Counted from the first letter of the stretch, positions 32,841-52,329 are shown. The stretch is DNA of 64,000 nucleotides from Dysgonamonadaceae bacterium (GCA_041672395.1 JBAYZS010000003.1:6638-70637); one strand, 5' to 3'. Translations and numbers: made by a program. Notes: a model not told the origin generated them from the sequence alone.

Positions 32841-32866
32841 TGGTTCTTCTTCAATTTAGTTGAAAA
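32841..32866 (+). repeat. IS terminal inverted repeat, left copy
   Basis: TGGTTCTTCTTCAATTTAGTTGAAAA. Its reverse complement occurs at 34734-34759. Confidence 0.9.
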
Positions 32867-34559: not shown

Positions 34560-34733
34560 GATTTTTTCTTTATGATTTTGCAATATAAAGTTACTGAAAA
34601 TCAGTCGAATATCCTATTATTTTGCCTGCTATTTTATTGATTATTAGACGATTAGCTGGCACCTAGTGTTAATCTTTAAATAATAACAGTGTCTACTATT
34701 GCAAATGATTAACCACAAAAGGGAAGATGGAAG

Positions 34734-34759
34734 TTTTCAACTAAATTGAAGAAGAACCA
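34734..34759 (-). repeat. IS terminal inverted repeat, right copy
   Basis: TTTTCAACTAAATTGAAGAAGAACCA is the exact reverse complement of 32841-32866. Confidence 0.9.
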
Positions 34760-34823
34760 AATATTTCAGGACAAGACACCCATTTAACTTTGGAATAACC
34801 TCTGTGTAACTCCCACCATGGTC

Positions 34824-36464
34824 TCACTCTCCTCCCACCTTAGACTTCTCCTCCAGAAACTGACCAAATTCAATATATCTCTTATACAACTCATCGTATA
34901 TTTGATTTCTCTCTTTATTCGGCTGATAATTTGCAAGTATCCCCTGACCTAGGCTTTCTTGTGCTAGCTCGATTGTTTCGAAAATGTTGGCAGCAACAGC
35001 AGCATACATTGCTGCACCCATTGCACCTGCTTGTTGCGTTGCAGCTACCTCAATAGGTACGTTCATAACATCAGAAAGTGTTTGCATTACATATGGCGAC
35101 TTCAATGAAATACCTCCCACACCAATTACTTTCAATATTTTAACACCCTGCATCTCAAGATGTTCCAGAATGGCCCTGGATCCAAAAGCGGTAGATTCCA
35201 CAAAACATTTGTAAAGTTGGGCAGGGGTAGTACCGAGGGTTAAATCCATAACGCCACCTTTTAATGTCTGATCGGCAAAAGGTGTTCTGCGCCCGTTCAA
35301 CCAGTCAACAGCTACCAAATCATTACGACTAACCGACAGCGCTGAAGCTTCTTTGTTCAAACGGGGTAAAATAGTGGATAGAATCTCGGATTTATTGTCG
35401 TCATCAGGGAGCCACCATGAAAGGATATCACGAAGCCACGCATACATATCGCCAAAAGCCGATTGTCCGGCTTCCAATCCTGTAAATCCCGGTATCACTG
35501 AACCATCCACCTGTCCACTGATTCCCGGAATAGTTTTTCCACCTATGTCCTCTTTAGAAGTAACCACGATATCACACGTAGATGTCCCAATGATTTTCAC
35601 CATTGTATTTGGCTTAATTCCAGCTCCCACGGCACCGGCATGAGCATCGATAATTCCTACCGAAACATCAATGCCTCTGGGTAATCCAAGTATTTCCGAC
35701 CACTCATTGGTAATTTTGCCTGCTGATTTGTCGCTTGTAAATGTCCGACTACTCAAATGGTCTGTAAAGCCTTCAAACAAAGGATCAAGTGCCGAGAGAA
35801 ATTCTTGTGACGGATAACCATTCCATTCTTCGGCCCACATACATTTGTGACCCGCGGCACATCTACTGCGTTTCACATGTTCCGGCTTCAGATTGCCGGT
35901 CAGTAATGCCGGCATCCAATCGCAATGCTCAATAATGGAATAAGCATCCTTTCTAAGTCGTTCATTTGCGCGAAGAGCGTGAAGCCCTTTAGACCAGAAC
36001 CATTCAGAAGAATAGATTCCACCCGACAATGAAGTAAAATCGGTCTCCCATTTATGCGATAAGTTGTTAATATCATCTGCTTCTTTTATCGATGTATGAT
36101 CTTTCCAAAGGATAAACATTGCATCAGGATCTTCTGCAAATTGTGGAAGTAATGCTAAGGGCGTACCATTTTTGTCTGTCAGACAAGGTGTACTGCCGGT
36201 TGTATCAATTCCAATGGTAGTAATTTTATTCACTTCTTCTGTAGATAACTTTGCCAGCACACCTTTTGTTACTTCAATCAAAGAATCGATATAGTCTTGA
36301 GGATGTTGACGATATCTGTTTTCGGAAGGATCGCAATACAGCTCTTTTTTCCATCTTGAATAGAAGGAGATAGCGCAGGCTAATTCATTTCCGGTAGATG
36401 TATCTACAACAATTGCCCTACACGAATCGGTACCGTAATCGAGTCCTATAACTAGCTTTCCCAT
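34824..36464 (-). CDS. araB: AraB-type ribulokinase (FGGY carbohydrate kinase family)
   Basis: The N-terminus VIGLDYGTDSCRAIVVD...FYSRWKKELYCDPSENRYRQHPQDYIDS parallels the E. coli AraB N-terminus as I recall it (IGLDFGSDSVRA..., WYPRWQKGQFCD...FRHHPRDYIES). The 546-aa length fits AraB rather than FucK. Confidence 0.85.
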   Translation of the reverse strand: MGKLVIGLDYGTDSCRAIVVDTSTGNELACAISFYSRWKKELYCDPSENRYRQHPQDYIDSLIEVTKGVLAKLSTEEVNKITTIGIDTTGSTPCLTDKNGTPLALLPQFAEDPDAMFILWKDHTSIKEADDINNLSHKWETDFTSLSGGIYSSEWFWSKGLHALRANERLRKDAYSIIEHCDWMPALLTGNLKPEHVKRSRCAAGHKCMWAEEWNGYPSQEFLSALDPLFEGFTDHLSSRTFTSDKSAGKITNEWSEILGLPRGIDVSVGIIDAHAGAVGAGIKPNTMVKIIGTSTCDIVVTSKEDIGGKTIPGISGQVDGSVIPGFTGLEAGQSAFGDMYAWLRDILSWWLPDDDNKSEILSTILPRLNKEASALSVSRNDLVAVDWLNGRRTPFADQTLKGGVMDLTLGTTPAQLYKCFVESTAFGSRAILEHLEMQGVKILKVIGVGGISLKSPYVMQTLSDVMNVPIEVAATQQAGAMGAAMYAAVAANIFETIELAQESLGQGILANYQPNKERNQIYDELYKRYIEFGQFLEEKSKVGGE

Positions 36465-36470
36465 AATTTG

Positions 36471-37925
36471 TTATTTATCTAATGACGATTGGATTTTCTT
36501 ATTCCTTGCGACGGTTAAACTGTAGTAAGTGATGAAAGCAAATGCGAGTGCGGGAACCCAATAAGCAAATTTTATGCTGCCCGACTGATCAGAAAGGATT
36601 CCCTGTAATTGAGTTAAAAGTGCAGCTCCAGCAATAGCCATAACCATTCCCGATCCTCCAATTTTTGTATCTTCACCTAATCCCTTCATGCCAATACCAT
36701 AAATTGTTGGAAACATGAGCGACATGCAGCCGGAAATACCTGTCAGTGCATACACACCAGCAAATCCATCGCTGTAAATAGCAGATAAAGAGCATATTAA
36801 TGCTAATATTGCAAAGGCAGAAAGCAGATTAACGGGCTTAATATACCTCATTAACCATGTGCATACAAAACGACCTATAACAAACAGAATCAGGGACAAA
36901 ATGTAATATGTAGCTCCCGCTTGCTCTGCAGTACGGGGAAGCAAAGCATCTATTCCCAACCATTCAACTAATGAATAAAAGCTGCCTGCAACTGGCTCTA
37001 CACCGCGCAAAGCAGTGATAATAACATCAGAAGATGGGTTAGCTCCCAATGAGGCTATGACATCGTCGAATTTTAATTCTTGCATTGCATATCTGATGAT
37101 AAATGACCAGACAGCAATTTGTGCTCCTACATAGAAAAACTGTGCCAACACACCCCAAACATAGTTTTTATTATTTGTTAATCTTTTGAATGTAGCTCTG
37201 AGTTTCAACGACTTATTGTCCTCATGTACTTTTGGCATCTTAGTGAATAATATCAGAAGCATAAGCACAAGCATCACGATTCCTAATATTAAATATGCTG
37301 TTGAAACGGCTTTTAACTCGTTGTTCTGAATGTTAACTAGATCTATATCAGTCAATAATGTTCTTTCGGAGGCGGTCTTTGTATTCAATTGAGATAGTAC
37401 GTATATCTGACTCACCATCACCCCTGTTAATGCGCCAAATGGATTGAACGACTGTGAAAAGTTAAGACGACGGGTAGCTGTTTCCGGATCGCCAAGTGCA
37501 TAAACATAAGCATTTGTTGCGGTTTCCAAAACCGATAATCCGGCAAAAAGAACAAATATTGCGAATAAATAACTTGCAAAACTTAAAGGTGAACTGATAT
37601 TATTAACAAGCATTGCCGGGTAAAATAATGAACATCCTATGATACAAAGGATTAGTCCCAGTAGAACACCCGATTTGAACGTGTGCTTTTTAATGAAAAT
37701 TGCACCCGGAAGAGCAAAGCAGCCATAACCTAAAAGATAACAGACTACCTGAATCCAGGCTGTTTGTGTATCGTTCATACTCATGATTCGCTTGAATGCT
37801 GCAAGCATTGTATCTGTCATGTTGTTTGGAACAGCCCAAATAAAGAAAAGAGAGGTAAGTAGAATAAACGGTAAAACAATTCCCTTTGGCACTAAACGAT
37901 GTTTTTCTAAATTTCTTGAATTCAT
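36471..37925 (-). CDS. fucP: FucP-family sugar:H+ symporter (MFS)
   Basis: LPFILLTSLFFIWAVPNNMTDTMLAAFKR matches the FucP N-terminal signature (FALLCSLFFLWAVANNLNDILLPQF). 12-TM profile. 484 aa. Confidence 0.85.
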   Translation of the reverse strand: MNSRNLEKHRLVPKGIVLPFILLTSLFFIWAVPNNMTDTMLAAFKRIMSMNDTQTAWIQVVCYLLGYGCFALPGAIFIKKHTFKSGVLLGLILCIIGCSLFYPAMLVNNISSPLSFASYLFAIFVLFAGLSVLETATNAYVYALGDPETATRRLNFSQSFNPFGALTGVMVSQIYVLSQLNTKTASERTLLTDIDLVNIQNNELKAVSTAYLILGIVMLVLMLLILFTKMPKVHEDNKSLKLRATFKRLTNNKNYVWGVLAQFFYVGAQIAVWSFIIRYAMQELKFDDVIASLGANPSSDVIITALRGVEPVAGSFYSLVEWLGIDALLPRTAEQAGATYYILSLILFVIGRFVCTWLMRYIKPVNLLSAFAILALICSLSAIYSDGFAGVYALTGISGCMSLMFPTIYGIGMKGLGEDTKIGGSGMVMAIAGAALLTQLQGILSDQSGSIKFAYWVPALAFAFITYYSLTVARNKKIQSSLDK

Positions 37926-38032
37926 ATAAGTTTGTTTAGAATATGTTATTGATAATAAGATGTATAATCCTGTTAAAGCGGAGCGGTTAGCGTTCCAATA
38001 TTTATTATGTTAATGGTTTTGGGTGAATCAAT

Positions 38033-39283
38033 TCAAAATATTGTTTTAACTTTTTCAAGGTTCACTCTCAGCAGTTTTTCTGCTATGATAGATAGCTCAG
38101 CTTCATTACCCACAAAATGAAATACATTATGCGTATGAGAAAGTGATTCACCTGGTTTCAGAAATGCTGCTGGTGAACAACTTTCTAATTCGAGGAAAGG
38201 TCCCATAATGCTTCCATCCTCCAGTGGACCATCGTTATAGGCATTGAGTGCATCTCCTATTAGTGGGTTCTTTTTTGGATTCCACTCCTGATTTAAATAC
38301 ACACTGTTGGGTTCTACATCAAAAATAATTATTGTCAATCTGTCAGCTATCGGGTCATAATTTCCAGCAATAGTTTTTGTGCGTTTGGGGTTCATTCCAA
38401 TTTTGCTTCGGTGTTTTCCATCGGTTTTAAGATAGAGTATATCATTCTCAACTTTCAAATAGTCAGATGGTATCTCTCCAAAATAATCTGTAGTAGCAAC
38501 TGTGCCCAACTCTGCATCGTCGCCGGAATTATAAGGAACAACAGTTATTGCAGAATCAGATGGATTGAACATATCGAGCATCCAAATGCAGATGGTACCG
38601 GTTTTATCTGTCCATTCAAAATCATTCTTATTGGTTATTTTGTTATCGGTAGCATAAGCAACAGAATTTACACCTTCAGGTAATTGAATCCCTAACTTTG
38701 ACGTTATTCCCTCTTTTGTGATTAGCGAAATCTTCCTGTCTACAAGCAAGTTAAGTGTTGTTCCCTGAGAGTTCTTAACCGTAATATCTTTGGTTAATAG
38801 CGTTTCTGATGATGTAGCACTCTCGATATTCCATTCTTCTGTATCTAATGCTTTTGGAGTGTGCCAATTATCATAAATTTGTTCTTTTCCGGGTTCAAAA
38901 TATACGGAATATTGTCCTCCTTCTGGACCCAACCAGAAACGATTTTCTCCACCGTAACCGTTCATGTGTTCATCAATCTGCCCGGAATCAAAGACTCTGT
39001 AATTCACAAACCCGAGACTGTTCCCATCCAGACCATTAGCTGTTGAGGTAAATACTTTTCCCTGGTATTTTGCCGACAGAATTACTTGTGCCTGATCATC
39101 AGTCGACTTTAATATAATCAAACTGTCTTTTTTAGATAGATAGTTTAGGTCGTACCCAAATGTTCCTTTTTCATATTCCTTTTCCATGTTTTCTGATGTT
39201 TTTTTGTTGCCTGTGCAAGAGAACAGTAATGTACCTCCTATCATCGCAGGCAGCAGTGTTCGATAGATTTGTTTAAGTTTCAT
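38033..39283 (-). CDS. Lipoprotein of unknown function
   Basis: Lipobox (GGTLLFSCTGN). 416 aa and beta-rich, with the motif GYGGENRFWLGPEGGQ. I do not recognise a family. Confidence 0.6.
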   Translation of the reverse strand: MKLKQIYRTLLPAMIGGTLLFSCTGNKKTSENMEKEYEKGTFGYDLNYLSKKDSLIILKSTDDQAQVILSAKYQGKVFTSTANGLDGNSLGFVNYRVFDSGQIDEHMNGYGGENRFWLGPEGGQYSVYFEPGKEQIYDNWHTPKALDTEEWNIESATSSETLLTKDITVKNSQGTTLNLLVDRKISLITKEGITSKLGIQLPEGVNSVAYATDNKITNKNDFEWTDKTGTICIWMLDMFNPSDSAITVVPYNSGDDAELGTVATTDYFGEIPSDYLKVENDILYLKTDGKHRSKIGMNPKRTKTIAGNYDPIADRLTIIIFDVEPNSVYLNQEWNPKKNPLIGDALNAYNDGPLEDGSIMGPFLELESCSPAAFLKPGESLSHTHNVFHFVGNEAELSIIAEKLLRVNLEKVKTIF

Positions 39284-39354
39284 ATTGATTTAATTATCGT
39301 GATTTTCTTGTTTTTTTTCTTGGTTGAAATTCAGATTGTAATTCCTATGTATTT

Positions 39355-41442
39355 TTATTCTATTGTTCCAAACTTGTCGAGAATGCGATTGTAGGCTTCT
39401 GCGGCTGCTCCGTTTCCCCAATCATAAATGGTAAACTCACCCATACCTTCACCTTCGGGACCGGTACGTCCGCCATGACCGTAATTCTCCATCGTAAACC
39501 CATAATCCTCAGGTCCAAAGAATGAATTCACTTTCTCCCATTGCTTTTTGGTTACAGGATTCAGTGGACTATACATCATTACGAATGAGGCTTTTAATGC
39601 TGCATTACCTCTTTCGGTATATTCTTGCATGTCAAGCAGTTTGCCGTATTGAAGGATGAGCTCAGCAAACAGACTCTGTCGTGCATCATTCCATTCTGCA
39701 TCTGCATTTAGTACTCCAAAACCACCCAGTACATTCACATACATATATGGCGGTTGCCATGATGCTTGGGTCATTAACAGTTCATCAAGTGTTCGCTGTC
39801 CCAGTTCCAGGTAGCGCTGTTGTTTTGTTATCCGATAGCATTCCAATAGAGCTTCAGCTGTCCAGAACATTGAAAAATTGTTTTGCTTGTACATGTTATT
39901 TCTCGTTACTTTTTCCCCAACAAGATTATCCGACCCGTAACGTGAACAAGACCAGTAGGTTTCAAAATCTTCCCATCGTCCTGTGGATATGTTTTCTCGG
40001 ATAACCGCATCCATGGATTTTAATGCAGCTTCTTTATATTCTTGTTTTCCGGTTAATTCATAAAGTTTGAGGAGAAAAGTCACTGACATAGAGCTTTCTG
40101 GTGAGTCATTCAAATGGTTCATCGGTTTTAAAGTGTGCAAATCGAGCCATCCTGGAAAGAAGCCATTGGGAAATTGTATCTCCAGTAAAGCTTTTGCATA
40201 ACTTTGTGCATACTGGAGCAGTCGTGCATCTTTCTCCAGTTCATCATACCAGCGCAGCATCAGTAAAGCTGTCCAACTCATGTCAAGTACATGAAAAGGT
40301 GACTCTTTGGGATTCCATGTGTATGGGTTTCGATTAGAATTTCCCCAATAATGGGTATTCCAACCTTTACTGCGATTATACTTTTGCCCATCTATCTCTA
40401 CATCATGCATTTCTGTACCAATTAGTCCATAAAAGAAACCATCGACTTGCGGGAATGAGAGTGCCAGCTCTTTTGTGAGCATCGCTTTTTCCATCAATTT
40501 CGCATTTCCTGTTCTTCGGGCATACCGAAACAGACCGCTGGCAGATCGTAATGAGCTGAACCATGCCTGGTTCCATATCGATCTGAATTCACGTTCATTG
40601 ACCTTGCCTGGGTAATTGGGACTCTGCGTGACATTCACTATAAATACCGGTGCACCCACTTTTTTCCCGTCCAGTTTAAACTCTTGCCAAACGTTATCGG
40701 ACCAAGTATTGAATGCCCAGTTATAGGTATGTTCCACATATTTTTCCAGATTTACATTAACGGGATTTCCCGTCTGATAGAGAGCGTGTCCCCAGCGTTG
40801 CCAAAGGAATTCAAGTGGTTTTCGAAATGGGTTTTGCACTATTTGTACATCAGTGTAATGCATCAGATAAAATCCTATCTCTACTTCACCCTGAAGATAT
40901 TCGGCCCCCTTTTCCCTCAGAAAGAGCACATGATCATCAACTCTGCTGTTGCTCATCCCCAATTTCAGTCGGTTATTCGGGGCATCAAGATCGAGGTACC
41001 ATCTTACGGGAGTTCCTTTTTTCATGATGTCCAAATCGGGTATCAGCGCCATCATCTGTTCATTGTCTGAGACAATCAACGCTGGGGAACGAAATACATG
41101 TTGGTCGATAATGTGGTCAGCAGTGGGAGTCAAATGTGGCGACCAGTGGAAGGAAGGTTTGAATCTGGGAGTTACAACCACTTGCCAGTCATTCTGTTGC
41201 AAAGATTTATCGAGTTTAAAACTAATCTTTACATGCAGACAATTGTCATTAATAACGGTGATTTTAGTTTTCCCTTTACTCTTTCCTAATTGGTCGTAAT
41301 GAATATTTTGCGTCACTTGATCCTTGGGAAAAGACGTTTTTATAACCTCCGTCTGCTTTTTGGGCAGCATCGGTTCCTGGGCAATCAGCAAGAAAACCGA
41401 TGCACATAATCCGAATAGGGTGGTACAAAAACGTCTTTTCAT
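39355..41442 (-). CDS. Secreted protein of unknown function with a beta-rich N-terminal half and a helical-repeat ((alpha/alpha)6-like) C-terminal half
   Basis: Signal peptide MKRRFCTTLFGLCASVFLLIAQEP, using the ATG at 41442 because the listed start at 41451 is a TTG. The C-terminal 350 aa contain regularly spaced aromatic-rich helix pairs (WTALLMLRWYDE.., YAKALLEIQFPNGFFPGW, VTFLLKLYELTG.., FWTAEALLECYRIT..). Confidence 0.6.
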   Translation of the reverse strand: MKRRFCTTLFGLCASVFLLIAQEPMLPKKQTEVIKTSFPKDQVTQNIHYDQLGKSKGKTKITVINDNCLHVKISFKLDKSLQQNDWQVVVTPRFKPSFHWSPHLTPTADHIIDQHVFRSPALIVSDNEQMMALIPDLDIMKKGTPVRWYLDLDAPNNRLKLGMSNSRVDDHVLFLREKGAEYLQGEVEIGFYLMHYTDVQIVQNPFRKPLEFLWQRWGHALYQTGNPVNVNLEKYVEHTYNWAFNTWSDNVWQEFKLDGKKVGAPVFIVNVTQSPNYPGKVNEREFRSIWNQAWFSSLRSASGLFRYARRTGNAKLMEKAMLTKELALSFPQVDGFFYGLIGTEMHDVEIDGQKYNRSKGWNTHYWGNSNRNPYTWNPKESPFHVLDMSWTALLMLRWYDELEKDARLLQYAQSYAKALLEIQFPNGFFPGWLDLHTLKPMNHLNDSPESSMSVTFLLKLYELTGKQEYKEAALKSMDAVIRENISTGRWEDFETYWSCSRYGSDNLVGEKVTRNNMYKQNNFSMFWTAEALLECYRITKQQRYLELGQRTLDELLMTQASWQPPYMYVNVLGGFGVLNADAEWNDARQSLFAELILQYGKLLDMQEYTERGNAALKASFVMMYSPLNPVTKKQWEKVNSFFGPEDYGFTMENYGHGGRTGPEGEGMGEFTIYDWGNGAAAEAYNRILDKFGTIE

Positions 41443-41451
41443 TATCCTCAA

Positions 41452-43395
41452 TTATTCTTCTATTCGTTCAAGTGTGATTAATGTGAGCTCAAACAAATTA
41501 GCTTTCCCTTTGTCTCTGACATGAACCGTAATTGAGTTTATTTGAGGAGTAAGTTGAATATCCCCAACATAAACATTCTCTCTGTAGCCATCTTTATCAG
41601 ACTTAGTGGAAATCCAATCCGACAGTTGATTTTGTCGTTGCCATATCTGAAAATCAGCACCCTTGGGACTCTCGTGATAATTAAGCAATACTTTATATTT
41701 GCCTTCAGGTACATCGGTTAGTTTTACTCTTACTGCTCCTTTTCCATAAGATGAGATAGCCAATCCTCTGTCCAGTATAACCTGAATGCCCCGTTCAAGG
41801 GTGATCTCCATTAACTGAGGGAAGAACACATGTTTGTTGGGTAGATATACTTCTCTCAATTCTTCAGTCGGTTCCATTCGGTTTTTGAGCGGTTGATCAG
41901 CATAAAAGAATGCTGTTGAAGCATAATCAACCGGAAAATTGTTCCCCACTTCTCCATGTTCCATAGCAAGATAAATCTCTTTTTCGAAAGAGAGTTTATC
42001 GGAAAGAAAGAAACGGTAAGCACCCGTCCGGTTCATCGGTAATGAGTAGTCTAGTGAGCCATGAAGCGGCATGCTAATTCCACTGTCCCAACGGTCCAAA
42101 AGTGCATACCAGCCACCATTATAATAATCCTCTGATCCGGTGCCATGCATCCGCATTTTACCATCTACATATGTAGAATCATCTCCTTCCCAAAATAAGG
42201 TCATACCCGGTCGCAGTCCCTGTGCATGATGAATAGTTCCAACATAATGGCCTTTGCCTTGAGTTTTCAGAAAGGTGAAGAATTGACCGACTTCTGGTTT
42301 TTCGCGTCTCCACAATGTGTAAAGTTTTCCTTCCTCTTTTTTATCACGTTTATTATCGTTGTAATATACTTTTGCCGTCACGGATACAGGGTTCTGTTGA
42401 ACACCTTCCCGCTTTTTATATATCAGCTTCATCTCTGCCGATTTGTCGTATGGCATCGGGAGATAACTGTAGTTGGTGGTTCCATGGCGTCCCATAATAA
42501 TGCTACGCATTGCCGGTTTTCCAAATGCATATCCGAAGAAATCAGCTACCGGTGCATAAATTGCTTCTACTGGTTCGTTATCCCATTTGGCTGACAAGAT
42601 GATGTCTTTGTAAAATCCTTCAAATGACGTACCACCATCGATATCAAAACCTGCGATGCGACCACCTTCAGACTTGTCAAAAAATGTAACCTCTTCACCT
42701 GGAAGGATGGTAAAAGTCTTTACTTCTGTTTGGAGTTGAGTCGACTTTCCAAAAGCGTATTGATTGACAGTAGGTGATATGTTGCCCCATAAAGTGTTCA
42801 CCTCTGACAATAATTGTTTGTCTGTTTCAGAAAAAACACCTGTCCAGCTTTCTACATTTAACCTCGGTAGTTTGCGGTATTGAATCTGATGAAACATGAT
42901 CTTTTCTCCTTGAAACACAATCTTAAGTGATTTCTTGAATGGGATTGGAATATAGCAGTAATATCCACCAATTTCGTTACCCACAACCGGTTTAACAAAC
43001 GGATACACCTTACCTGAAAAGAGATCAATAAACTTTATTTTCAAACGTGGTTCCTTTTCACCATCAAAATAGAAAGCAAGCGTATCTTCAGTTGGAGTGG
43101 GGGTCCAGATTCGGTTTACAACACCCGGACCTTCAAACTCTGCCAGAACCAAATTGTCTTTTTCTTTGCGGATGTATGAGTACTTACCCGAGAATCCATC
43201 ATCATTACCTCCAGTCCTGTCATAACTTGATTCCTGGTCAATCAACTGGTTATGTCGGTAACGGGGAAGTTGATCCACACTTTTTAATTGTTTTACCTCA
43301 TCACTCCAATGATAGGTATTATTTTGACTTTGTGCCTGAAAAACTCCTGCCAGAAACAGAATTGCAACTAAAATTTTTAATGAGACTCTTTTCAT
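41452..43395 (-). CDS. DUF2961 / GH172-family protein with a C-terminal extra domain
   Basis: Signal peptide present. DUF2961 blocks: SSYDRTGGNDDG, GPGVVNRIWTPTP, FYFDGE, GTGSEDYYNGGWY, YRFFLSDKLSFEKEI and EHG..GNNFPVDYASTAFFYAD. About 120 further residues (KLTDVPEGKYKVLLNYHESPKGADFQIW) follow the core. Confidence 0.85.
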   Translation of the reverse strand: MKRVSLKILVAILFLAGVFQAQSQNNTYHWSDEVKQLKSVDQLPRYRHNQLIDQESSYDRTGGNDDGFSGKYSYIRKEKDNLVLAEFEGPGVVNRIWTPTPTEDTLAFYFDGEKEPRLKIKFIDLFSGKVYPFVKPVVGNEIGGYYCYIPIPFKKSLKIVFQGEKIMFHQIQYRKLPRLNVESWTGVFSETDKQLLSEVNTLWGNISPTVNQYAFGKSTQLQTEVKTFTILPGEEVTFFDKSEGGRIAGFDIDGGTSFEGFYKDIILSAKWDNEPVEAIYAPVADFFGYAFGKPAMRSIIMGRHGTTNYSYLPMPYDKSAEMKLIYKKREGVQQNPVSVTAKVYYNDNKRDKKEEGKLYTLWRREKPEVGQFFTFLKTQGKGHYVGTIHHAQGLRPGMTLFWEGDDSTYVDGKMRMHGTGSEDYYNGGWYALLDRWDSGISMPLHGSLDYSLPMNRTGAYRFFLSDKLSFEKEIYLAMEHGEVGNNFPVDYASTAFFYADQPLKNRMEPTEELREVYLPNKHVFFPQLMEITLERGIQVILDRGLAISSYGKGAVRVKLTDVPEGKYKVLLNYHESPKGADFQIWQRQNQLSDWISTKSDKDGYRENVYVGDIQLTPQINSITVHVRDKGKANLFELTLITLERIEE

Positions 43396-43414
43396 TGTTA
43401 TTCTTTATATGATT

Positions 43415-44605
43415 TCATTCATTACCCCACAAATTAGGATCATTACCTTTTGATTTTCTCCATGCATCGCGCCATTTATGAATATCCATGTGATTAATAA
43501 ATGGTTTTAGTGCTCGTTGAGCTTTTGTCGGTGCAGGAGTAAGAGCTACTGCACTATCTTGATACCAGTAAGCTACTGAAGCCAGATCCAACGTTAAATT
43601 ATTGTTTGAACCATGCTCAATTGTTCCTTTTACCTCTGTTTCAAAGAATATGGGATCATTAATGAAGAAACGATAAACATGAGTACGACCAAGCCAGCCA
43701 ACATCGTTATTTACACGTGGATAGCCAAAATAGGGATGTGAAAATGGTTCCTTTGGACACCATGACGTGTTGAAAAAATCTTCGGTGCCTGTTCCAATTA
43801 AAGAAGGGGATTTTTCTCCATCAATAAACCACATATCATCTCCTTCTCCATACCACATTGGAGTAGGTGAATGCACATAGTAATTTATACCAATAAAATG
43901 TCCTTTTCCTTTTGTGTTGATGAAAACATAATTTTGTTCTCCCGTTTTGTTAGGATGTTGTGCTCCGGTAAGCCCCCATTCAGTCTCTCCTTCAGGAAGA
44001 GCATCTGTAAGATTATGGTTGTACCAGGCATGAAAACGTCCCATATCTTCAGGTAGCTTATCCATTTGTAAATAATCTACATAAAAATAGAATGCGTTGA
44101 TAGTCTTATCAGTCTGATTTTCAATTTCTATTCGGGCACCTTTAGCAAATGGCATTGCAAAATAACTTGTTAGACCTGTTCCGTTTTCAGGTCCGGCCGA
44201 AAGTGGAAAGGAGGCGTAGTTATATCGTTCATCCCATCCTTGTCCAAAGAAAGGTCCGATAGGTGATTCAACTGATGGATAATCGTTTCCATCCCAATAC
44301 ATTCTGATGATAATATCATTTCTGCTCAGTTCATCCGGAGGAGGGGCAATTGTAATCCAAATGTGATTGATTACTCCTGCTCCTTTAATCTCAGCGATAG
44401 TTCTTTTTTCTCCCGGCGCAAATGTTTCCAGATGATCTCTGTTTCCTCCCGTTGGATCAGTACTGGAAATTCGTTTATTTTTAATTCCTGTTTTTAGCTT
44501 TGCCAAATCTAACATTTCTCCGGTCATATTTTCTTGAGCAATCGCAGGAAAACTAAACAGTAAAACCAATAGGAGTGACAAACTTTTTTTTAATAAATTC
44601 TTCAT
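43415..44605 (-). CDS. DUF2961 / GH172-family protein
   Basis: Signal peptide MKNLLKKSLSLLLVLLFSFPAIAQ, using the ATG at 44605 because the listed start at 44650 is a TTG inside fucI. Blocks: STDPTGGNRD, GAGVINHIWITI, MYWDGNDYPSVESPIGPFFG, GTGTEDFFNTSW, YRFFINDPIFFE and EHGSNN...ASVAYWYQ. Confidence 0.9.
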   Translation of the reverse strand: MKNLLKKSLSLLLVLLFSFPAIAQENMTGEMLDLAKLKTGIKNKRISSTDPTGGNRDHLETFAPGEKRTIAEIKGAGVINHIWITIAPPPDELSRNDIIIRMYWDGNDYPSVESPIGPFFGQGWDERYNYASFPLSAGPENGTGLTSYFAMPFAKGARIEIENQTDKTINAFYFYVDYLQMDKLPEDMGRFHAWYNHNLTDALPEGETEWGLTGAQHPNKTGEQNYVFINTKGKGHFIGINYYVHSPTPMWYGEGDDMWFIDGEKSPSLIGTGTEDFFNTSWCPKEPFSHPYFGYPRVNNDVGWLGRTHVYRFFINDPIFFETEVKGTIEHGSNNNLTLDLASVAYWYQDSAVALTPAPTKAQRALKPFINHMDIHKWRDAWRKSKGNDPNLWGNE

Positions 44606-44619
44606 GATCTTAAGTATAT

Positions 44620-46395
44620 TTATTTGTATAATGGACCAAAAGTAGCACAAGCACGATAATCTGCTCCTTCGTTATCTGATCCGAATGAACTCCAAGTCGA
44701 CGGACGGAAAATTTTGTTTTCGTCTACATTATGCATGTTTACTGGGATTGAAAGGGTTGAACATAAGGTGATTAAGTCTGCTCCAATATGGCCATAACTG
44801 ATGGCGCCATGGTTCGCTCCCCAATAATTCATAACTGAATATACATCTGCAAAACGACCTTTTCCGGTTGTTCGTGGTATAAAGAAGGTCGATGGCCACG
44901 TTTTGTCGGTTCGTTTATCAATGATATCAAAAACGTCGTCAGGAAAGGTAGCGGTCCAACCTTCAGCAATCTGCATGACAGGACCTAAACCTTTTACTAG
45001 ATTGATACGGCACATTGTAACTGGCATTCCATGTCGGGTAATAAACTTGGAAGAATAACCGCCACCTCTCATATATTCAAGGTTTGAAGGATACCATGTC
45101 GTAGCATCTAACATTTTGTCAACTTCTTTTTTAGTTATTTCCCAAAATGGTTTCATAACTGGATTACCTTCACTGTCGGATTGTTGACCGCTTCCATCTA
45201 AAGTACATGAACCTGAATTAATTAAATGAATGGCTCCGTCTTTTAATAATCCGTCTGGTTTCCAGCCGCTTACTCTTTCTATTGCTGTTGGACTCCAATA
45301 GGTTCTTACGTCTGCAAACATTTGAGAAGTGTTTGTGAGTAGATGATTGAACAACATACTGATTCCATTCAAATGGTCGTCTTCTGTAGCGAATATAAAT
45401 GCTTCTCGTATTCCATTCCAGTCGAATGAGGAATTTAATATTGCTTCTGAAAAATCACCGTCTGGCAAAAAATCTGTCCATTGTCTTTGTCCCTGAAATC
45501 CACCCGCAATTGCATTATGTCCAAGTGCTTCTTCTCCCCAACCCATTTCGTCAAGTTTGGGATTACCAAACATTAGGTCTCTCATAATCAAGGTCATCTT
45601 AACAACAAACTCCCAGTCCTTGTCTTTTTGTTCTCTCGAGTGAATCAAATGGGGGGGATTATAGTCTTCTCCTTCACGACTCATGCAATTCTCTTTTGTC
45701 CATGTCATGGCTTTTTGAAATTCTTCTTTGTCATATATCTCAAGTTGTATGCGACGGAGTATCTCACTTGAATCAACAAATTCAGTTCGCATGCCAAGAT
45801 ATTCTTGAAGAAAATCGGGGTTGACCATCGAGCCGCCAATGCCCATAGAAACTGAACCAATCGCTAAATATGATTTTCCTTTCATCTGGGCTAAAGCTAA
45901 TCCGGCGCGGGCAAATCGAAGTAGTTTTTCTTTTACATCTTCTGGAATAGTGGGATCGCCTACATCCTGAACATCTCTGCCATATATTCCAAATGTTGGT
46001 AATCCCTTTTGATTATGGACTGCTAATGCAGCTGCCAAATAAACAGCTCCCGGACGTTCTGTTCCATTAAAACCCCAAATAGCTTTTGGAATATTTGGAT
46101 TCATGTCTATTGTTTCAGATCCATAACACCAGCATGAAGAAACTGAAAGTGAGAGCCCAACATTCTCTCTTTCAAATTTTTCGGCACACATTGATGCTTC
46201 TTTCACACCACCAATGCATGTATTTGCTATTACACATTGAACCGGACTTCCGTCGGGATACTTTAGCGTTTCCTTGTATAGTTTTTCTACTTTTTTGGCA
46301 AGATTCATAGTTGTTTCTTCCAATGATTCTCTGATACCTTTTCTTCGACCATCAATAACGGGACGAATTCCAATTTTTGGATAACTTGTTTTCAT
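44620..46395 (-). CDS. fucI: L-fucose isomerase (also a D-arabinose isomerase in characterised homologs)
   Basis: 591 aa, the same length class as E. coli FucI. The N-terminus [21 protein letters not shown] and the later blocks are collinear with FucI. Confidence 0.93.
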
Positions 46396-46453
46396 TTCTA
46401 TTTAGTATTTAAATGTAAATTGTTAAACTGAATCACTAATTTTTTTATAAAAC

Positions 46454-47452
46454 TTATTCACGAACTTCCAATTCTGCTTCAATAATGCAGTTCTTAATTT
46501 CGTAATTTTTCATCTCCATCTGGTCTGTAAGTAATTGCATTGCATTTTTTGCCATTTCTTCGATAGGCTGTTTAATAAAAGGAATATTTAATGGTAGAAT
46601 ATAAAAGGCATCACTCTCATCGAAGCACATTAACTGAATATCGCTTTGATATTGTTTTTGTTTGTATAATTCCTTGATGCCACTTATTGAAATAGAGTTT
46701 GTTGTAAAATAGATTGCGTCTATAGTTGGCTCGTTAGATAATAATTCATGAATGACTTTTTCCATATCACTATTCAAAAATTCATACCGGACCATTTTTA
46801 TGTTTTTTTCATTGTAAAAATTAGCATTTTTAGTTGCTTCAACATATCCTCTATTTCGTTCATTTATATGAAACTGAGTCTGTTTATAAGTGATAAGAGC
46901 AATATTTTTAAAGCCTTTTTCAATTAGTTTTGAAATAGCATAATACGAAATTTCGAAATTATTAATTAATACTGAACATACATTAATTTCTGGAAAGTTT
47001 CTGTCGACCAGCACCAACGGAATTTTTTCATTTGCCAAATATTGGATAGTTTTTTCACTACCGGCAGGAGGGGTAATAACAAAACCATCTACTTGTCTTG
47101 ATTTCAATAGATTAACCATCTTGTCCATCTCTGATGATTCCTCATTTGTGTTAGCAATGATTACAGCATAACCTTTTTTTTCGGCCTCATTTTGTATATA
47201 TAATGCAAGCTTACCAAAAAAAACATTTGAAATATCCGCAACAATTAAACCAATTGTTGCGGATTTACCTATCTTCAAACCCTTGGCAAAGGAATTAGGA
47301 GTGTAATGTAATTCTTCGGCCTTTTCAAGTATCTTTTTAGAGGTTTCTTCGCTAACCCTCCCTTTTATGTTTTTTCCATTCAATACAAGAGACACTGTAG
47401 CGATAGAAACTCCAATTTCATCGGCAATATATTTCAAGGATATTTTTTCCAT
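46454..47452 (-). CDS. LacI-family transcriptional regulator
   Basis: N-terminal helix-turn-helix LKYIADEIGVSIATVSLVLNGK..., the hinge YTPNSFAKGLK and a periplasmic-binding-protein-like sugar-sensor domain. 332 aa. Confidence 0.9.
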   Translation of the reverse strand: MEKISLKYIADEIGVSIATVSLVLNGKNIKGRVSEETSKKILEKAEELHYTPNSFAKGLKIGKSATIGLIVADISNVFFGKLALYIQNEAEKKGYAVIIANTNEESSEMDKMVNLLKSRQVDGFVITPPAGSEKTIQYLANEKIPLVLVDRNFPEINVCSVLINNFEISYYAISKLIEKGFKNIALITYKQTQFHINERNRGYVEATKNANFYNEKNIKMVRYEFLNSDMEKVIHELLSNEPTIDAIYFTTNSISISGIKELYKQKQYQSDIQLMCFDESDAFYILPLNIPFIKQPIEEMAKNAMQLLTDQMEMKNYEIKNCIIEAELEVRE

Positions 47453-47508
47453 AATATTTCTCTTTTAATTTTTCTATTGAATTTAAATAAACGTATAGAG
47501 TTATAAGA

Positions 47509-48666
47509 TTAATTATTGCTAGCTATATCCACGCTCATCAAAAAAACGTTATATGGCTCCCATAAAGACATCAGAAAATAAAGTTTATCTTCATGTATCT
47601 TTAAAGGATGTATAAATGCACAATATAATCCGGGATATTCATTATCAGAAACCAATATTTTTGGTTTGCTCCACTCCGTAATATTATCTGCATCCCTATA
47701 TACTATAGCATGTTTCCTTTGAGGATTATTGGGGTCGCATGCATAATCATAATTATGGGTTAAAATCCATTTATTATATTTTTCGTGATATATTAGAGAC
47801 GCTTCACCAACGGGAGCCGGAATAATCGGAGTTGCTTCATTTTCATTGCCCTTAATCCATTGCTTAGATCTTCCGTTCCAATATTCATATTCGTTCATCT
47901 TCAATATATTATCCTCTTTAAAACGAGCAAGATAACCATCATCTCCTCTTCCTGAACATGTTCCAATCATATAAACAATGCCATCTTTCTTTGCATAAGT
48001 TACCTGTGAAAAATGACTTAAAGGATTAAAAGTTATTTCCTCTTTTCTTTGCCATGTTTTTCCATTATCTTAGGAGGCGTTAAGAGATGAAAAATTCGTA
48101 AGCCAAGAACAATCATGACCTGCCCAATCGTGAATATTCATATAATGAACATAATCAACTCCGTTTGCGCGAATTGCAGATGTAGGTATCGAAGTTTGAT
48201 ACTTTTCGGGATTTGTTTTACCTCCTGCAATAATTTCTCGTGCTTTTCCATCTAAATCTAATGCCATTCCAGAAATAGATAATCCATCTTCTAAGTTTGT
48301 GTCTTCTGAAAATGCCAAAACATTAGAACGCCAGTTAGAACCATTTCCACCTCCGCCATTTAGAAATGGTCGAAACCCCTCGCCATGGGTATCACCAAAG
48401 AATATTCCGATTTTATCTCCATCCATATGCCACATAATACCTAAATCAGTTCCTAAAACATCATAAGTCGCAGTATTATTAGGATTAGGAAAATTTTCAT
48501 CGGGCATCGAATTCCCGGTAACACGGGCAATTCGTTTGAGATTTGAAATATTAATAGATGGCTCTTTAATTATTTGTACTTTATCGGCATTACTATTATT
48601 TTTTTTTATCATCGTTTGAACATGCAATTAACAAAAGTGAGATTAAAAGAATGAATATATTTCCAT
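47509..48666 (-). pseudogene. DUF4185 / GH183-like (endo-D-arabinofuranase family) lipoprotein gene disrupted by an in-frame TAA and an out-of-frame signal peptide
   Basis: The ORFs 48070-48627 and 47509-47970 are in the same frame and are separated only by TAA at 48070-48072. The 99 nt between them translate without a stop (DNGKTWQRKEEITFNPLSHFSQVTYAKKDGIVY-MIGTC...). DUF4185-like blocks are present: GTDLGIMWHMDGDKIGIFFGDTHG, S*DNGKTW and VGEASLIYHEKYNKWIL. A lipoprotein signal peptide (IFILLISLLLIACSNDDKKK) lies in a different frame upstream of an A9 run at 48599-48607. Confidence 0.78.
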
Positions 48667-48668
48667 AT

Positions 48669-50027
48669 TTATTGCAATTGAATTGTATATAATAATTCTC
48701 CTGTTTCTCCGACCATATTTCCTTGAGAGGGCATGAAACTAGTCACAATAAATCGATTTTGATCTATTTGAGCAATGCCCGGATTTGCAAAAGAAGTAGA
48801 GCCTAAATTTGTATTTGGATTTAATTGATAATAAAATAATCCATTTCCAAATAAAATACGCCAGCTACTCCAATCATGTTGTATATATTGAGCCTCAATA
48901 AGTATATAATCACCATCTCTTCTGAAACTAGTTCTTGCACCTATATTGCCTTTAAAACCCATATTTTGGATATTATTATTTGAAATTATATCTTTCCAAG
49001 CTTTCCATTCGCTGAAATTCTGAATAATTCCAAATGCTTGTTGGTCATGTATAATGTTTTCATAATAATGGAACCCTAATAAAATATAAGAATTAGAAGG
49101 AGTATTACCTTCTATTTTCCTGATATCAGGTGTCCCTTCTGCTGTTGGAGCAAACGTACGAGTTATAGATTTATCATAAGATGGATTATTAATAATTAAG
49201 TCATCATATGAATTATAAAATCTTAATTGAACATTATTTGAACCTTGTATTACATCCTGTTCGTTAGCAACTAGATATCCATTTCCCCATTTTTCAATAT
49301 CACCTTGATGAGCCCTGTCTCCTAATTCTGTTATGTAAGTCCAACTTTTCAAGTCGTTACTTCCTGAAAGATACAATTTAAATCTACCATCATTGACCAT
49401 TGAATGAGAGACACCCAGATATGTGAATTTTTCATCAGCTTTCACTATTCGCAAAACATCCATTGTGATATTTCTATTATCCTTTAAACCAAAAATAGGA
49501 TTACTGTTTTTGATTGAATTTAATTTATTGATTAAATTATTAGTCTGAGGATTCTTTCTAAACCACCATTCATAAGCAATGTTCAGATTTACTGCAATAG
49601 CTTTAGATTCTAATTCATTTTGAGTTCTACCTGTATTGACAGTATTTAAATCAACAATTAAGCTATAATAATCTTTCAATGTCATTAAAGAGAGTTCATT
49701 CGTTTTGTATCCATAATCCAAAAGGAATTTATATGACATTGAAGCTAAACATAAATCATTGTCGCTCATTGATTTTAATTCAACTGATGGCGAAGCACTT
49801 ATTTTTTCTAAATTAGAAATCAAAGAGTTTCGTTTCTCATTATATGAAGTGGTCATTATAAATGAAAGTGGAGACCAATCCATATAAAGAAGAGTTTTGA
49901 CTAAGATATCTTCATTTTTAATTATAGGTTTTGTTTGAGAATTATTCTCGATATTCTCTTTTGAACAACCCGGAATTGCTATTAATAAGGATAATAGTAA
50001 GAGTGTATATTTTATAAGTTTTACCAT
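48669..50027 (-). CDS. Lipoprotein of unknown function (helical N-domain plus beta-rich C-domain with an Asp-box-like motif)
   Basis: Lipobox (LLIAIPGCSKEN). 452 aa. It has an SGSNDLKSWT Asp-box-like motif. Its start overlaps the stop of the upstream gene (ATGGTAA), and its stop lies 2 nt before the DUF4185 ATG. Confidence 0.6.
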   Translation of the reverse strand: MVKLIKYTLLLLSLLIAIPGCSKENIENNSQTKPIIKNEDILVKTLLYMDWSPLSFIMTTSYNEKRNSLISNLEKISASPSVELKSMSDNDLCLASMSYKFLLDYGYKTNELSLMTLKDYYSLIVDLNTVNTGRTQNELESKAIAVNLNIAYEWWFRKNPQTNNLINKLNSIKNSNPIFGLKDNRNITMDVLRIVKADEKFTYLGVSHSMVNDGRFKLYLSGSNDLKSWTYITELGDRAHQGDIEKWGNGYLVANEQDVIQGSNNVQLRFYNSYDDLIINNPSYDKSITRTFAPTAEGTPDIRKIEGNTPSNSYILLGFHYYENIIHDQQAFGIIQNFSEWKAWKDIISNNNIQNMGFKGNIGARTSFRRDGDYILIEAQYIQHDWSSWRILFGNGLFYYQLNPNTNLGSTSFANPGIAQIDQNRFIVTSFMPSQGNMVGETGELLYTIQLQ

Positions 50028-52201
50028 TGAATATTTACGATTGTACCTTCAGGATCATTTTCGAAAGTAATTTTGCATGTTTTGCTAAAACTATTCCATT
50101 CCCACTTTGCATCAGTAAGTGGATTCATTTCTGTATCTGTTATGACACACCTTTTTGGTGAAGTTGGCAGTAATACCCTAATAACGTTTGAAGTACTTAA
50201 TGGACTTTTAGAAAGAAATGAATAGCTTTTTTTTGTGATTTTTTCAACATAAATTCTTGAAGCTGATGCTAATACCTGAGGCTCCATTCTGTTCTCTACT
50301 TTATCTATGTTGAATAGATAAGCTTGACTTCCTGGCTTTACAATTTTTTGTGTTAAAATAGGAAGCTGAGGATCAAATAGATCAACAAATAATCCATTTA
50401 ATACATAAGCGTCATTATTAACACTTTCATCTAAGACTGATACAATTTCATATGGACCTCTTGATAACGAGAAATAATTTTTCAGTTTCATTGAAGAACC
50501 ATCCTTTTCATAAAGTCCTTTTACAACATTAAGTAATTTTAAATCTGTCCCTTTTTCTAGAATAAATTCTTTTGGATCATTGCGAAGTACATAAATAGTG
50601 CCTTTACCATATTTGTATTGGCCTTCATCGGGAAATGAATTTAATCCTAGTAATTTAAATAAGTGATCAGATGCTCGTTCGTAGGAATTCCCATCTTGAT
50701 TCCACCATTCAGGTACAGATTGAAAAGGATCATTATCTCGTCCGCAATATACCAGAATACCTCCGAATTTTACCCAATCAGCAATGTAACTGTGAGATTT
50801 ATCAGAAAGGGGTTTCATATTAGAATACGACATCAATAAAATTTTCGTGTCGTTCCAAGTTTCTGGATATTCTACATTTTCTAGATGAACTATATTTACG
50901 GGGATACCTTGTTTAATAAATGGAAGTGATTGACCGTAAAAATTTGAAAGTTGAGGATCTTCATATCCTTTGTGAGTTGGAAATCGCTGAAACATTAATG
51001 AATTCGCCATTAAAACACTAATACCGTGTGAACCGCTGACCTTATTTTCAGATAGTGGTATGTGGTTCAACGAATTTATCATTACTTGCATTTGTGTAGA
51101 ATAAAAACGAGGTATTTTATCTTTTTTATCACTTTCGGCGCTAGTTCTATATAATCCTTCATAGATTCTGTCAGGCCATGGCATTACTTCGTAATCACTA
51201 ATGTTTGGATACAATAATTGAGCCGTAAATGTTGCCTGATAATTATTCTTATAATCAACCCAATCACGAGGCAAATCTTCAATTGGGTCAGTAAGAAAAA
51301 ATATTTTTCGACCTGTTGGGGCTGTCATTGATTCCATAGATCCGTATTCAAGAAAAGCAGTTTCAAAAACCCTTTCTTTACGAATACCTTTGTAATAATT
51401 GGGTTCTCTGGAAGTACCTGTCCAAACTTGGGCTATATACCCATCTACTGAAGGAAGAGAAGCAAGACTTGCTTCTGGACTCACAATTTGCCATTGAGAA
51501 TAATTTACTAGTGAATGTGTAGGTACATAACAACGTACATTCAGCCCTTTGCTTTTTCCATATTCTTTGGCATATCTAAAACATTCATCTAAGGCACGAT
51601 AATATAAGTAATATTTCAGTTTATTAGATAAATAAGTGTTTTCAGGAGATTCATGTTGAGGTCTCCAGTCAAAACCGTAATAATTTTTCCATTCTTTTTT
51701 GAATGCCTCACTATAACCTGCTCTTGCCCAAAACTCAGGCTCTTCTAAGTAAATAGCATCAATGCCTGCATCAATTACTTTTTTTATGTGTTTTTCTTTT
51801 ATGTATTGAATAAAATTTAAAGTGGGTACGATATAAGGAACAAGATGTCCATGCCAAATAGTATCACCTTGACGTGTTTTCTGTCCTTCATCTAAATGCC
51901 ATTTTCCATCCCATTTTCCAGTGAAATAGTCTTGATATTCTCCCCAAGCAATTCCGGTCATGAAATGTGTTTGATATCCTTTATCCCGCCACGATTCAAC
52001 TCTGTCTTTAAAAGATAAATCTTTCCTGTCATTTGCTCCATAAACAATTGCAATGTCTGCACGAGTGTCAGTTACCGGTTTCCAAGGGGCAGATGTCTGA
52101 AATGCTGTTTTCTCTTTATTCTTCTGAAATGTGTTTTGTGAATATACTCCTATAAAATAAAGAGATACAAATAATATTGCTATATAAATCTTGATTTTCA
52201 T
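50021..52201 (-). CDS. Secreted protein of unknown function; glycoside-hydrolase-like TIM barrel followed by further domains
   Basis: Signal peptide present. 726 aa. The N-half alternates beta/alpha segments and has an AIYLEEPEFW motif reminiscent of clan GH-A acid/base strands. The middle region (ILLMSYSN...WVKFGGILVYCG) resembles the glutamine-amidotransferase-like trimerisation domain of GH42-type enzymes. I do not recognise a family. Confidence 0.55.
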   Translation of the reverse strand: MKIKIYIAILFVSLYFIGVYSQNTFQKNKEKTAFQTSAPWKPVTDTRADIAIVYGANDRKDLSFKDRVESWRDKGYQTHFMTGIAWGEYQDYFTGKWDGKWHLDEGQKTRQGDTIWHGHLVPYIVPTLNFIQYIKEKHIKKVIDAGIDAIYLEEPEFWARAGYSEAFKKEWKNYYGFDWRPQHESPENTYLSNKLKYYLYYRALDECFRYAKEYGKSKGLNVRCYVPTHSLVNYSQWQIVSPEASLASLPSVDGYIAQVWTGTSREPNYYKGIRKERVFETAFLEYGSMESMTAPTGRKIFFLTDPIEDLPRDWVDYKNNYQATFTAQLLYPNISDYEVMPWPDRIYEGLYRTSAESDKKDKIPRFYSTQMQVMINSLNHIPLSENKVSGSHGISVLMANSLMFQRFPTHKGYEDPQLSNFYGQSLPFIKQGIPVNIVHLENVEYPETWNDTKILLMSYSNMKPLSDKSHSYIADWVKFGGILVYCGRDNDPFQSVPEWWNQDGNSYERASDHLFKLLGLNSFPDEGQYKYGKGTIYVLRNDPKEFILEKGTDLKLLNVVKGLYEKDGSSMKLKNYFSLSRGPYEIVSVLDESVNNDAYVLNGLFVDLFDPQLPILTQKIVKPGSQAYLFNIDKVENRMEPQVLASASRIYVEKITKKSYSFLSKSPLSTSNVIRVLLPTSPKRCVITDTEMNPLTDAKWEWNSFSKTCKITFENDPEGTIVNIQW

Positions 52202-52304
52202 TTCGCTGTCTATGAATTTAAAGACAAGAGCATGTTATTTATACTTGACCAAGTAAACATTCTCCTGTCATAATAAATATGAATTAAGGAATATCAACTA
52301 TTAT

Positions 52305-52329
52305 GGCTTAATTATAATTATGCCTTTTT
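52305..52329 (+). promoter_or_regulatory. Near-perfect 20-nt AT-rich palindrome GGCTTAATTATAATTATGCC followed by T5
   Basis: Read directly. It lies in a 698-bp non-coding region between the divergent 726-aa gene and clpB. No upstream plus-strand gene exists for it to terminate. Confidence 0.3.

Follow-up and report, generated by a model that had tools for sequence, protein, structure and literature searches.

A reduced, SusC/SusD-less variant of the D-arabinan utilisation system in a Dysgonamonadaceae genome

A stretch of 64,000 nucleotides (nt) from a Dysgonamonadaceae bacterium (GCA_041672395.1, JBAYZS010000003.1:6638-70637), referred to below as the window, carries at positions 34824-52201 a locus of 11 co-oriented minus-strand genes, which is a reduced, SusC/SusD-less variant of the known D-arabinan utilisation system. 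D-Arabinan is the cell-wall polymer of mycobacteria and relatives, and enzymes able to cleave it have been known only since 2023. The locus probably represents a LacI-controlled periplasmic scavenger operon for oligosaccharides of alpha-D-arabinofuranose (D-Araf) and for free D-arabinose, descended from a D-arabinan polysaccharide utilisation locus (PUL) of the PUL42 type known from Dysgonomonas gadei. The assignment to D-arabinose is well supported by orthology to D. gadei enzymes, by the neighbourhoods of 80 related loci and by published proteomics; the same lines of evidence bear out the series of steps foreseen in an earlier sequence-only reading of this DNA, i.e., release of D-Araf, uptake by FucP, isomerisation by FucI and phosphorylation by an AraB-type kinase. 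Neither this pathway nor the co-location of its genes is new.

Gene organization and catabolic enzymes

An unbroken run of minus-strand open reading frames (ORFs) extends from 52201 to 34824, with junctions between the genes of the operon ranging from an overlap of 7 nt (genes A and B) up to 107 nt. All the 11 genes listed beforehand with named domains were recovered by ORF listing and by family searches of the window proteins against Pfam and NCBIfam. Three of them encode catabolic proteins, all scoring above the curated family cutoffs: FucI, the L-fucose/D-arabinose isomerase (44620-46395, minus strand as for the whole operon; NF008220, 1053 bits; TIGR01089, 1025 bits), a FucP-type permease of the major facilitator superfamily (MFS) (36471-37925; TIGR00885, 412 bits against a cutoff of 280), and an AraB-type ribulokinase (34824-36464; NF003154, 674 bits against a cutoff of 428). 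Identity to the Escherichia coli counterparts was 62% for FucI, 33% for the permease (FucP) and 46% for the kinase (AraB). The kinase matched PDB entry 3QDK with E 6e-90, and scored 174 bits against the pentulose-kinase model TIGR01315, for which the cutoff is 409. E. coli AraB phosphorylates D-ribulose, thereby feeding the pentose phosphate pathway (PMC12307932).

Since neither FucK/FucA nor AraA/AraD was detected in or adjoining the locus by the Pfam and NCBIfam searches, the sole route completed by the genes present is from D-arabinose through D-ribulose to D-ribulose-5-phosphate (D-ribulose-5-P), the final step being predicted from gene content. FucI and FucP score above the cutoffs of the L-fucose equivalog models, and the kinase above that of an L-ribulokinase model, as would be expected of an operon of the L-fucose, L-galactose or L-arabinose type, in which FucI and FucP serve the sugar after which they are named and the substrate of the kinase is L-ribulose. 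Such an operon is highly unlikely, because the enzymes needed for L-fucose (FucK/FucA) and for L-arabinose (AraA/AraD) are those missing, the glycosidases are of D-Araf-specific types, and homologous FucI and ribulokinase are expressed by D. gadei on D-arabinan.

When D. gadei grows on D-arabinan, no carbohydrate-active protein exceeds the predicted fucose isomerase of PUL42 in abundance, and the proteome also includes, out of that gene range, a LacI-type regulator (02465), an abundant uncharacterised protein of 416 amino acids (aa) (HMPREF9455_02469), two SusC/SusD-sized pairs and a ribulokinase (02482). In the scheme of Shimokawa et al. (2023), D-arabinose is converted by an isomerase and a kinase to D-ribulose-5-P, which enters the pentose phosphate pathway, and D. 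gadei 02468 is listed as a putative GH116 (PMC10509167). The gene list of PUL42 was taken from the text of the papers and the proteomics table (PMC10115798; 10.64898/2026.08.13.744632; PMC10509167), not from PUL42 DNA. The sequence-only reading had regarded the presence of degradative and catabolic genes together in one locus as undescribed; such an organization is already in print for PUL42 (LacI, FucI and ribulokinase) and for a locus of Microbacterium arabinogalactanolyticum.

GH172 enzymes and the GH183 pseudogene

The assignments to GH172 and GH183 made beforehand were confirmed by Pfam hidden Markov model (HMM) searches, the GH183 gene being broken. GH172a (43415-44605; 396 aa from its ATG; DUF2961 E 2e-81) and GH172b (41452-43395; 647 aa, with two DUF2961 stretches) scored 273 and 186 bits, respectively, against the Pfam gathering cutoff of 27 for DUF2961, and both belong to GH172. 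GH172a, which carries a signal peptide of the signal peptidase I (SPI) type, aligned without gaps over 373 aa to D. gadei DgGH172c, also named Dg79 (PDB 8AH3), with 68% identity (E 6e-191), and shared 86% identity with the orphan structure 4KQ7. It is regarded as the orthologue of the characterised exo-alpha-1,5-D-arabinofuranosidase Dg79, whose activity it is predicted to have. GH172b is only 27% identical to GH172a; its precomputed domains are GH172_1st, GH172_dom, GH172_2nd and DUF8441, with a partially duplicated domain as in Dg71.

Family GH172 also includes alphaFFase1 (PDB 7V1V), to which GH172a gave a match of E 2e-54, and high similarity between DgGH172c and alphaFFase1 was noted by Shimokawa et al. 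(PMC10509167). One could thus suppose that alpha-D-fructofuranosides or difructose dianhydrides (DFA), derived from caramel or inulin, are the substrates of the GH172 enzymes, and that the locus is not for D-arabinose. This possibility is given very little weight, for GH172a is far more distant from alphaFFase1 than from Dg79, DFA I was not acted on by any of the three GH172 proteins from D. gadei, the locus includes no fructokinase or fructose transporter, FucI and ribulokinase suit a pentose, and relatives link the locus to GH183 and GH116.

The GH183 (DUF4185) endo-D-arabinanase gene (47509-48666) is a pseudogene in two pieces, 48070-48627 and 47509-47970. Each half matched DUF4185 with E of about 1e-35, both in the same frame; the break is an in-frame TAA within an Asp-box (S*DNGKTW), and the lipoprotein signal region is frame-shifted. 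Two independent metagenome contigs (L001 and L002), which showed 100% tblastn identity to both halves, have the split at an identical position, and for this reason the pseudogene is considered real and fixed, being present in three assemblies in all; sequencing error as the cause of the break was ruled out by the same observation. No match to GH116, of the subfamily-4 exo-beta-D-arabinofuranosidase type, was found within the window.

Secondary loss of SusC/SusD

The SusC/SusD pair that, alongside carbohydrate-active enzymes, marks a canonical Bacteroidota PUL is missing from the locus: five SusC/SusD pairs used as tblastn queries gave no match in the 30-56 kb region of the window, and the only pair of the window (5218-10286) is located about 25 kb off, in a separate sigma/anti-sigma GH76 locus. 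A relic of a DUF3823-like lipoprotein gene was detected by tblastn upstream of gene A (52287-52403, minus strand). It corresponds to the 3' end of the gene, namely the last 39 codons, over which it is 74-79% identical to proteins of 267-268 aa encoded in the related loci L006, L086 and L087 (E 1e-15 to 2e-16), and it contains an in-frame stop, with stops visible in its translation. In these three intact loci the DUF3823-like gene lies between SusD and the homologue of A. The leader upstream of A is about 290 nt longer in the window than in L003, the closest relative (84-97% protein identity), and the extra DNA contains this relic.

Because the relic remains, the absence of SusC/SusD is explained as a secondary loss. 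The conclusion drawn from these comparisons is that a SusC-SusD-DUF3823-A-B cassette would once have joined the D-arabinose module, and that the outer-membrane part would have been deleted in the lineage of the window. L003 is further reduced, having also lost the relic, B and GH183. The absence noted in the sequence-only reading therefore stands, while its supposed novelty does not, since SusC/SusD-less versions occur in several other genera.

The SusC-SusD-DUF3823-A-B cassette (L006:10222-19851) is common to the D-arabinose-type locus L006 and to GH92-rich loci, which shows modular shuffling of uptake cassettes from locus to locus. Compared with the GH92-type locus L086, identity of the L006 proteins was 65% for SusC and 70% for SusD. 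Compared with the canonical D-arabinan locus L012 it was no more than 28% for SusC, and between the SusD proteins of L006 and L012 no match was obtained at E 1e-5.

Related loci in Bacteroidota

By scanning species-representative genomes for GH172a, 199 hits were confirmed, and 80 loci were fetched, onto which the window proteins together with SusC, SusD, GH116 and others were mapped; all the counts below refer to these 80. FucI was found in 46 loci, and LacI plus FucI next to GH172a in 39. GH183 and GH116 were each present in 21 loci, DUF6786 in 24, FucP in 14 and the kinase in 10; all 14 loci with FucP also contain DUF6786, usually adjoining. In Petrimonas and Proteiniphilum the order is LacI-FucI-GH172a-SusC-SusD-GH183-(370 aa)-GH116. 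The unannotated secreted protein of about 370 aa between GH183 and GH116 (L012:18267-19379) takes the same position in about 17 loci, and DUF4886 proteins recur in loci of the Proteiniphilum/Petrimonas type; neither is encoded in the window. Besides the window, SusC/SusD-less loci with catabolic genes are L003, L013, L034, L036, L040, L046 and L067, from several genera.

GH183 was located within 10 kb solely where SusC was present (21 of 48 loci, against none of the 32 others; Fisher p = 3e-6). This distribution bears on the alternative of a complete D-arabinan system divided over the genome, the locus being one half and intact GH183, GH116 and SusC/SusD lying elsewhere, so that polymers are still degraded. 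Bacteroidota often spread the genes for one glycan across several loci, two GH172a loci were indeed found in some genomes, e.g., USLU01 (L042 and L066) and Parabacteroides sp. PH5-46 (L048 and L075), and what is visible here is 64 kb of the genome. Such a division appears unlikely all the same, given that the local GH183 was left to decay and the adjacent SusC/SusD was deleted, that L003 has lost both completely, and that the other SusC/SusD-less loci likewise have no GH183 within 10 kb.

Secreted proteins of uncharacterised function

Four secreted proteins had been held to fit no family. For one of them, the 416-aa DUF6786 lipoprotein (38033-39283), this was mistaken, since it belongs to Pfam family PF20583 (E 8e-157), of unknown function; the other three, A, B and H, have indeed no characterised family, though folds or domain relatives are recognisable. 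Sequence searches of all four against PDB gave no meaningful matches.

Protein H (39355-41442; secreted, 695-698 aa) matched the GH127 catalytic domain below threshold (17 bits against a cutoff of 24.9; E 0.003), and no GH116, GH127 or GH88 HMM scored above threshold; some of its 1,759 homologues carry a precomputed GH88 match. In at least nine clusters of H homologues, the proteins are 1121-1174 aa long and carry GH183 fused at the N-terminus. The metagenome proteins P0170-P0183, which are of this size, combine GH183 (residues 152-459 in P0170) with an H-family domain 73% identical to H of the window. The structural model of H, of low confidence (predicted local distance difference test score, pLDDT, 67) and used for gross architecture only, consists of an N-terminal beta-sandwich and an (alpha/alpha)6 barrel instead of the helical repeats proposed beforehand for this protein of 698 aa; fold matches of the GH52/GH63/GH116 type were obtained on this low-confidence model with E of about 1e-6 and template modelling (TM) scores of 0.16-0.34. 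H as a substitute for GH116 was considered, because L013 has H without GH116 and L034 the reverse, but both are present in the Bacteroides loci L020, L022 and L041, and no clear anticorrelation was seen.

An ORF of 1232 aa in a Tannerella metagenome-assembled genome (L077:6183-9881) joins DUF6786 to a GH116 that is complete, with both its N-terminal and its catalytic domain; this is one contig, and an assembly artefact is possible. No PDB relative of DUF6786 was detectable by sequence and profile searches, and no mention of it was found in the literature. A mutarotase-like nature, with membership of the aldose-1-epimerase superfamily, considered from the C-terminal motif 'ELE..SP..L.PGES..H', was rejected after hhalign against E. 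coli GalM gave a probability of 1.4% and the PDB profile search came back empty. The 416-aa protein that is abundant in D. gadei on D-arabinan is probably the counterpart of DUF6786.

Owing to these fusions and neighbourhoods, H and DUF6786 are good candidates for D-arabinan-related activities, H as a candidate accessory hydrolase of D-arabinan. It is conceivable, although doubtful, that one of the two, if not both, defines a new enzyme family acting on a feature of D-arabinan outside the reach of GH172, GH183 and GH116; possible targets are beta-D-Araf caps, the junction between Araf and galactofuranose (Galf), or residues decorated with succinyl or galactosamine (GalN) groups.

Protein A (50021-52201; 726 aa, SPI-type signal) had no Pfam, NCBIfam or PDB sequence match; in Bacteroidota its homologues at about 70% identity number over 7,500. 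Its AlphaFold2 model (pLDDT 73.5; predicted TM score 0.76) matched best in Foldseek GH42 (3tts; E 3e-11) and GH164 (6t7g), with TM scores of only 0.45-0.47 at this pLDDT. The model also resembles a GH35-like glucosyltransferase (E about 1e-10, TM about 0.45); GH42 enzymes are beta-galactosidases and GH164 is a beta-mannosidase. By sequence, A is not a member of GH42 or GH164; the model suggests a possible GH42/GH164-like fold, which would be composed of a TIM barrel, a trimerisation-type domain and a beta-sandwich, and the fold match supports the earlier description of the protein as TIM-barrel-like.

Protein B (48669-50027), a lipoprotein of 452 aa (signal ...LLIAIPGC) without a family, overlaps A by 7 nt and has few close homologues, adjoining GH92 and PI-PLC-like genes. 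Its C-terminal part of about 270 aa is a widespread unannotated domain, which occurs elsewhere in proteins with CBM96, PKD or fn3 domains; no Pfam family was found for it, even via remote homologues, and the profile of B gave only weak PDB matches, all GH130 (E 0.2-1.1). In L087 and L088, B homologues are located near PI-PLC_X/Rv2075c_cat proteins and several GH92 genes, which hints at inositol-phosphate-linked mannoside substrates. Elsewhere A occurs with GH76, GH92, GH125, GH127 and GxGYxYP proteins. Judged by this company, A and B seem to belong to a mannoside-directed cassette that is not D-arabinan-specific. The A-B cassette, normally in GH92/GH76/PI-PLC-like loci, is joined to the D-arabinose module in the window and in L006; more tentatively, its target may be the mannan part of lipoarabinomannan-like glycolipids.

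Predicted operator and regulation

The LacI-family regulator (46454-47452; Pfam LacI and Peripla_BP_1) is encoded just upstream of FucI. Owing to the high AT content of the DNA, a search for palindromes in the window by itself gave no useful result, and the operator was found by comparing the LacI-FucI spacers and the regions upstream of LacI across related loci. In about 25 of them a conserved palindrome, (A)GTTAAACGTTTAA(T), is present upstream of LacI and of FucI, often in two copies. The pattern TTAAWCGWTTAA has a single match in the 64-kb window (0.1 expected), the LacI-type operator TTAAACGATTAA at 52625-52636 (strand not assigned). A second conserved palindrome, ATATGTTATAAAACATAT, adjoins it at 52651-52668 (strand not assigned); its form, ATATGTTGTAAAACATAT, is found in a single copy in the window (0 expected by chance), and most related loci have close variants of it in the corresponding place upstream of the operator. 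This palindrome of 18 bp, ATATGTT(N)TA(W)AACATAT, about 15-20 nt upstream of the LacI-type operator, suggests another regulator besides LacI.

Both sites are upstream of gene A, not of LacI, and the same arrangement was found in L003, where the operator precedes the A homologue by 135 nt. Upstream of FucI in the window there is a degenerate copy, AGTTTAACAATTTAC (46415-46429, minus strand), which has lost the central CG of the AGTTAAACGTTTAAT found in the LacI-FucI spacers of relatives. The operon appears to be controlled from one predicted LacI-type operator, upstream of A.

Boundaries, selection and neighbouring genes

The upstream flank of the operon is a divergent clpB. At the other end an ISL3-family insertion (32788-34840, minus strand; DDE_Tnp_ISL3 and Zn_ribbon_ISL3) is a boundary feature outside the system; its 575-aa transposase ORF (32856-34583) lies between the kinase and a convergent MFS gene. 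The segment is absent from L003, where the kinase directly precedes the MFS gene.

This adjacent insertion sequence, together with one pseudogene, one gene relic and the degenerate internal operator, might be taken as signs that the whole locus is non-functional and in terminal decay. That it is so is very improbable, because none of the other ORFs is truncated, several genera retain the gene order, and comparison of the nine shared genes with those of L003 gave ratios of non-synonymous to synonymous substitution rates (dN/dS) of 0.03-0.12 throughout, dS being 0.3-0.9; the value for A is 0.12. As judged from these ratios, the nine genes common to the window and L003 are under purifying selection and maintained.

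Elsewhere in the window, a separate plus-strand locus (3230-13895) comprises an extracytoplasmic function (ECF) sigma factor, a FecR anti-sigma factor, SusC, SusD, two SusE-like genes and a GH76 alpha-1,6-mannanase; GH76 loci of the same layout harbour A homologues elsewhere (L083). Between this locus and the operon are unrelated histidine-utilisation genes (24911-31226, plus strand), including urocanase and histidine ammonia-lyase.

Discussion

Within the scavenger operon proposed here, small D-Araf oligosaccharides, probably freed by other organisms from arabinan of the Corynebacteriales type, would enter the periplasm without a dedicated SusC/SusD pair. D-Arabinose would then be released by GH172a, orthologous to the alpha-1,5-selective enzyme, and by GH172b, of Dg71-type architecture, probably assisted by H and DUF6786. 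After import by the FucP-type permease, D-arabinose would be isomerised by FucI to D-ribulose and phosphorylated by the AraB-type kinase to D-ribulose-5-P for the pentose phosphate pathway, if these members of well-recognised families have the specificities known from E. coli. The polymer-harvesting front end would have been lost, with GH183 a pseudogene, SusC-SusD-DUF3823 deleted save for the relic, and no GH116.

Several points weigh against this interpretation. The kinase scores slightly below the stricter L-ribulokinase cutoff of TIGR01234 (559 against 583), and sequence cannot tell a preference for D-ribulose from one for L-ribulose, nor is the preferred substrate of Dg71-type enzymes known. 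As A and B homologues are mostly in GH92/GH76/GH125 mannoside loci, the substrate of A and B may not be arabinan. The degenerate FucI-proximal operator leaves the regulatory picture incomplete. For the uncultured Dysgonomonadaceae source organism itself, the support is from sequence comparison, and with only 64 kb of its genome seen, a second locus with SusC/SusD and intact GH183 may exist elsewhere.

The current understanding is not overturned, as the pathway and the joint degradative and catabolic organization are already in print. PUL42-like loci are widespread in Bacteroidales, in modular forms, and the locus of the window documents a reduction from polymer harvester to scavenger of oligosaccharides and monosaccharides, for which the relic is direct evidence. 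Together with its relatives it nominates four uncharacterised secreted families (H, DUF6786, A and B) for enzyme discovery, with gene-fusion and neighbourhood evidence pointing to arabinan or lipoarabinomannan, and the conserved TTAAACGTTTAA operator provides a handle on the regulon.

Comparison with known systems

PUL42 of D. gadei (Al-Jourani et al. 2023, PMC10115798; Ross et al., preprint 10.64898/2026.08.13.744632) has in common with the window a LacI-type regulator, FucI, ribulokinase, a Dg79-type GH172 (68% identity), a GH172 of Dg71-type architecture, a 416-aa uncharacterised lipoprotein and GH183. It differs by two SusC/SusD pairs, a GH116 and a Dg67-type broad-specificity GH172, all absent from the window, where GH183 is a pseudogene; conversely, the window carries A, B and H, which could not be placed in PUL42 as known from the papers. 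The Microbacterium arabinogalactanolyticum locus (PMC10509167) likewise combines GH172 and GH183 with a putative isomerase and kinase, but this Gram-positive system employs an ATP-binding cassette (ABC) importer and intracellular exo-enzymes, whereas the window encodes an MFS FucP-type permease and glycosidases with signal peptides. With the L-fucose/D-arabinose cluster of E. coli B the window shares uptake by FucP, isomerisation by FucI and phosphorylation of D-ribulose at C5, performed there by the D-ribulokinase DarK; its kinase is of the AraB type, not the TIGR01315 type, fucA, fucK and fucO are absent, and glycosidases are attached. The uncharacterised Proteiniphilum/Petrimonas loci L012 and L021 share the orthologous LacI-FucI-GH172a core (58-85% identity) and the same operator, but keep the outer-membrane and endo-acting module, in place of which the window has GH172b-H-DUF6786-FucP-kinase downstream of the core.

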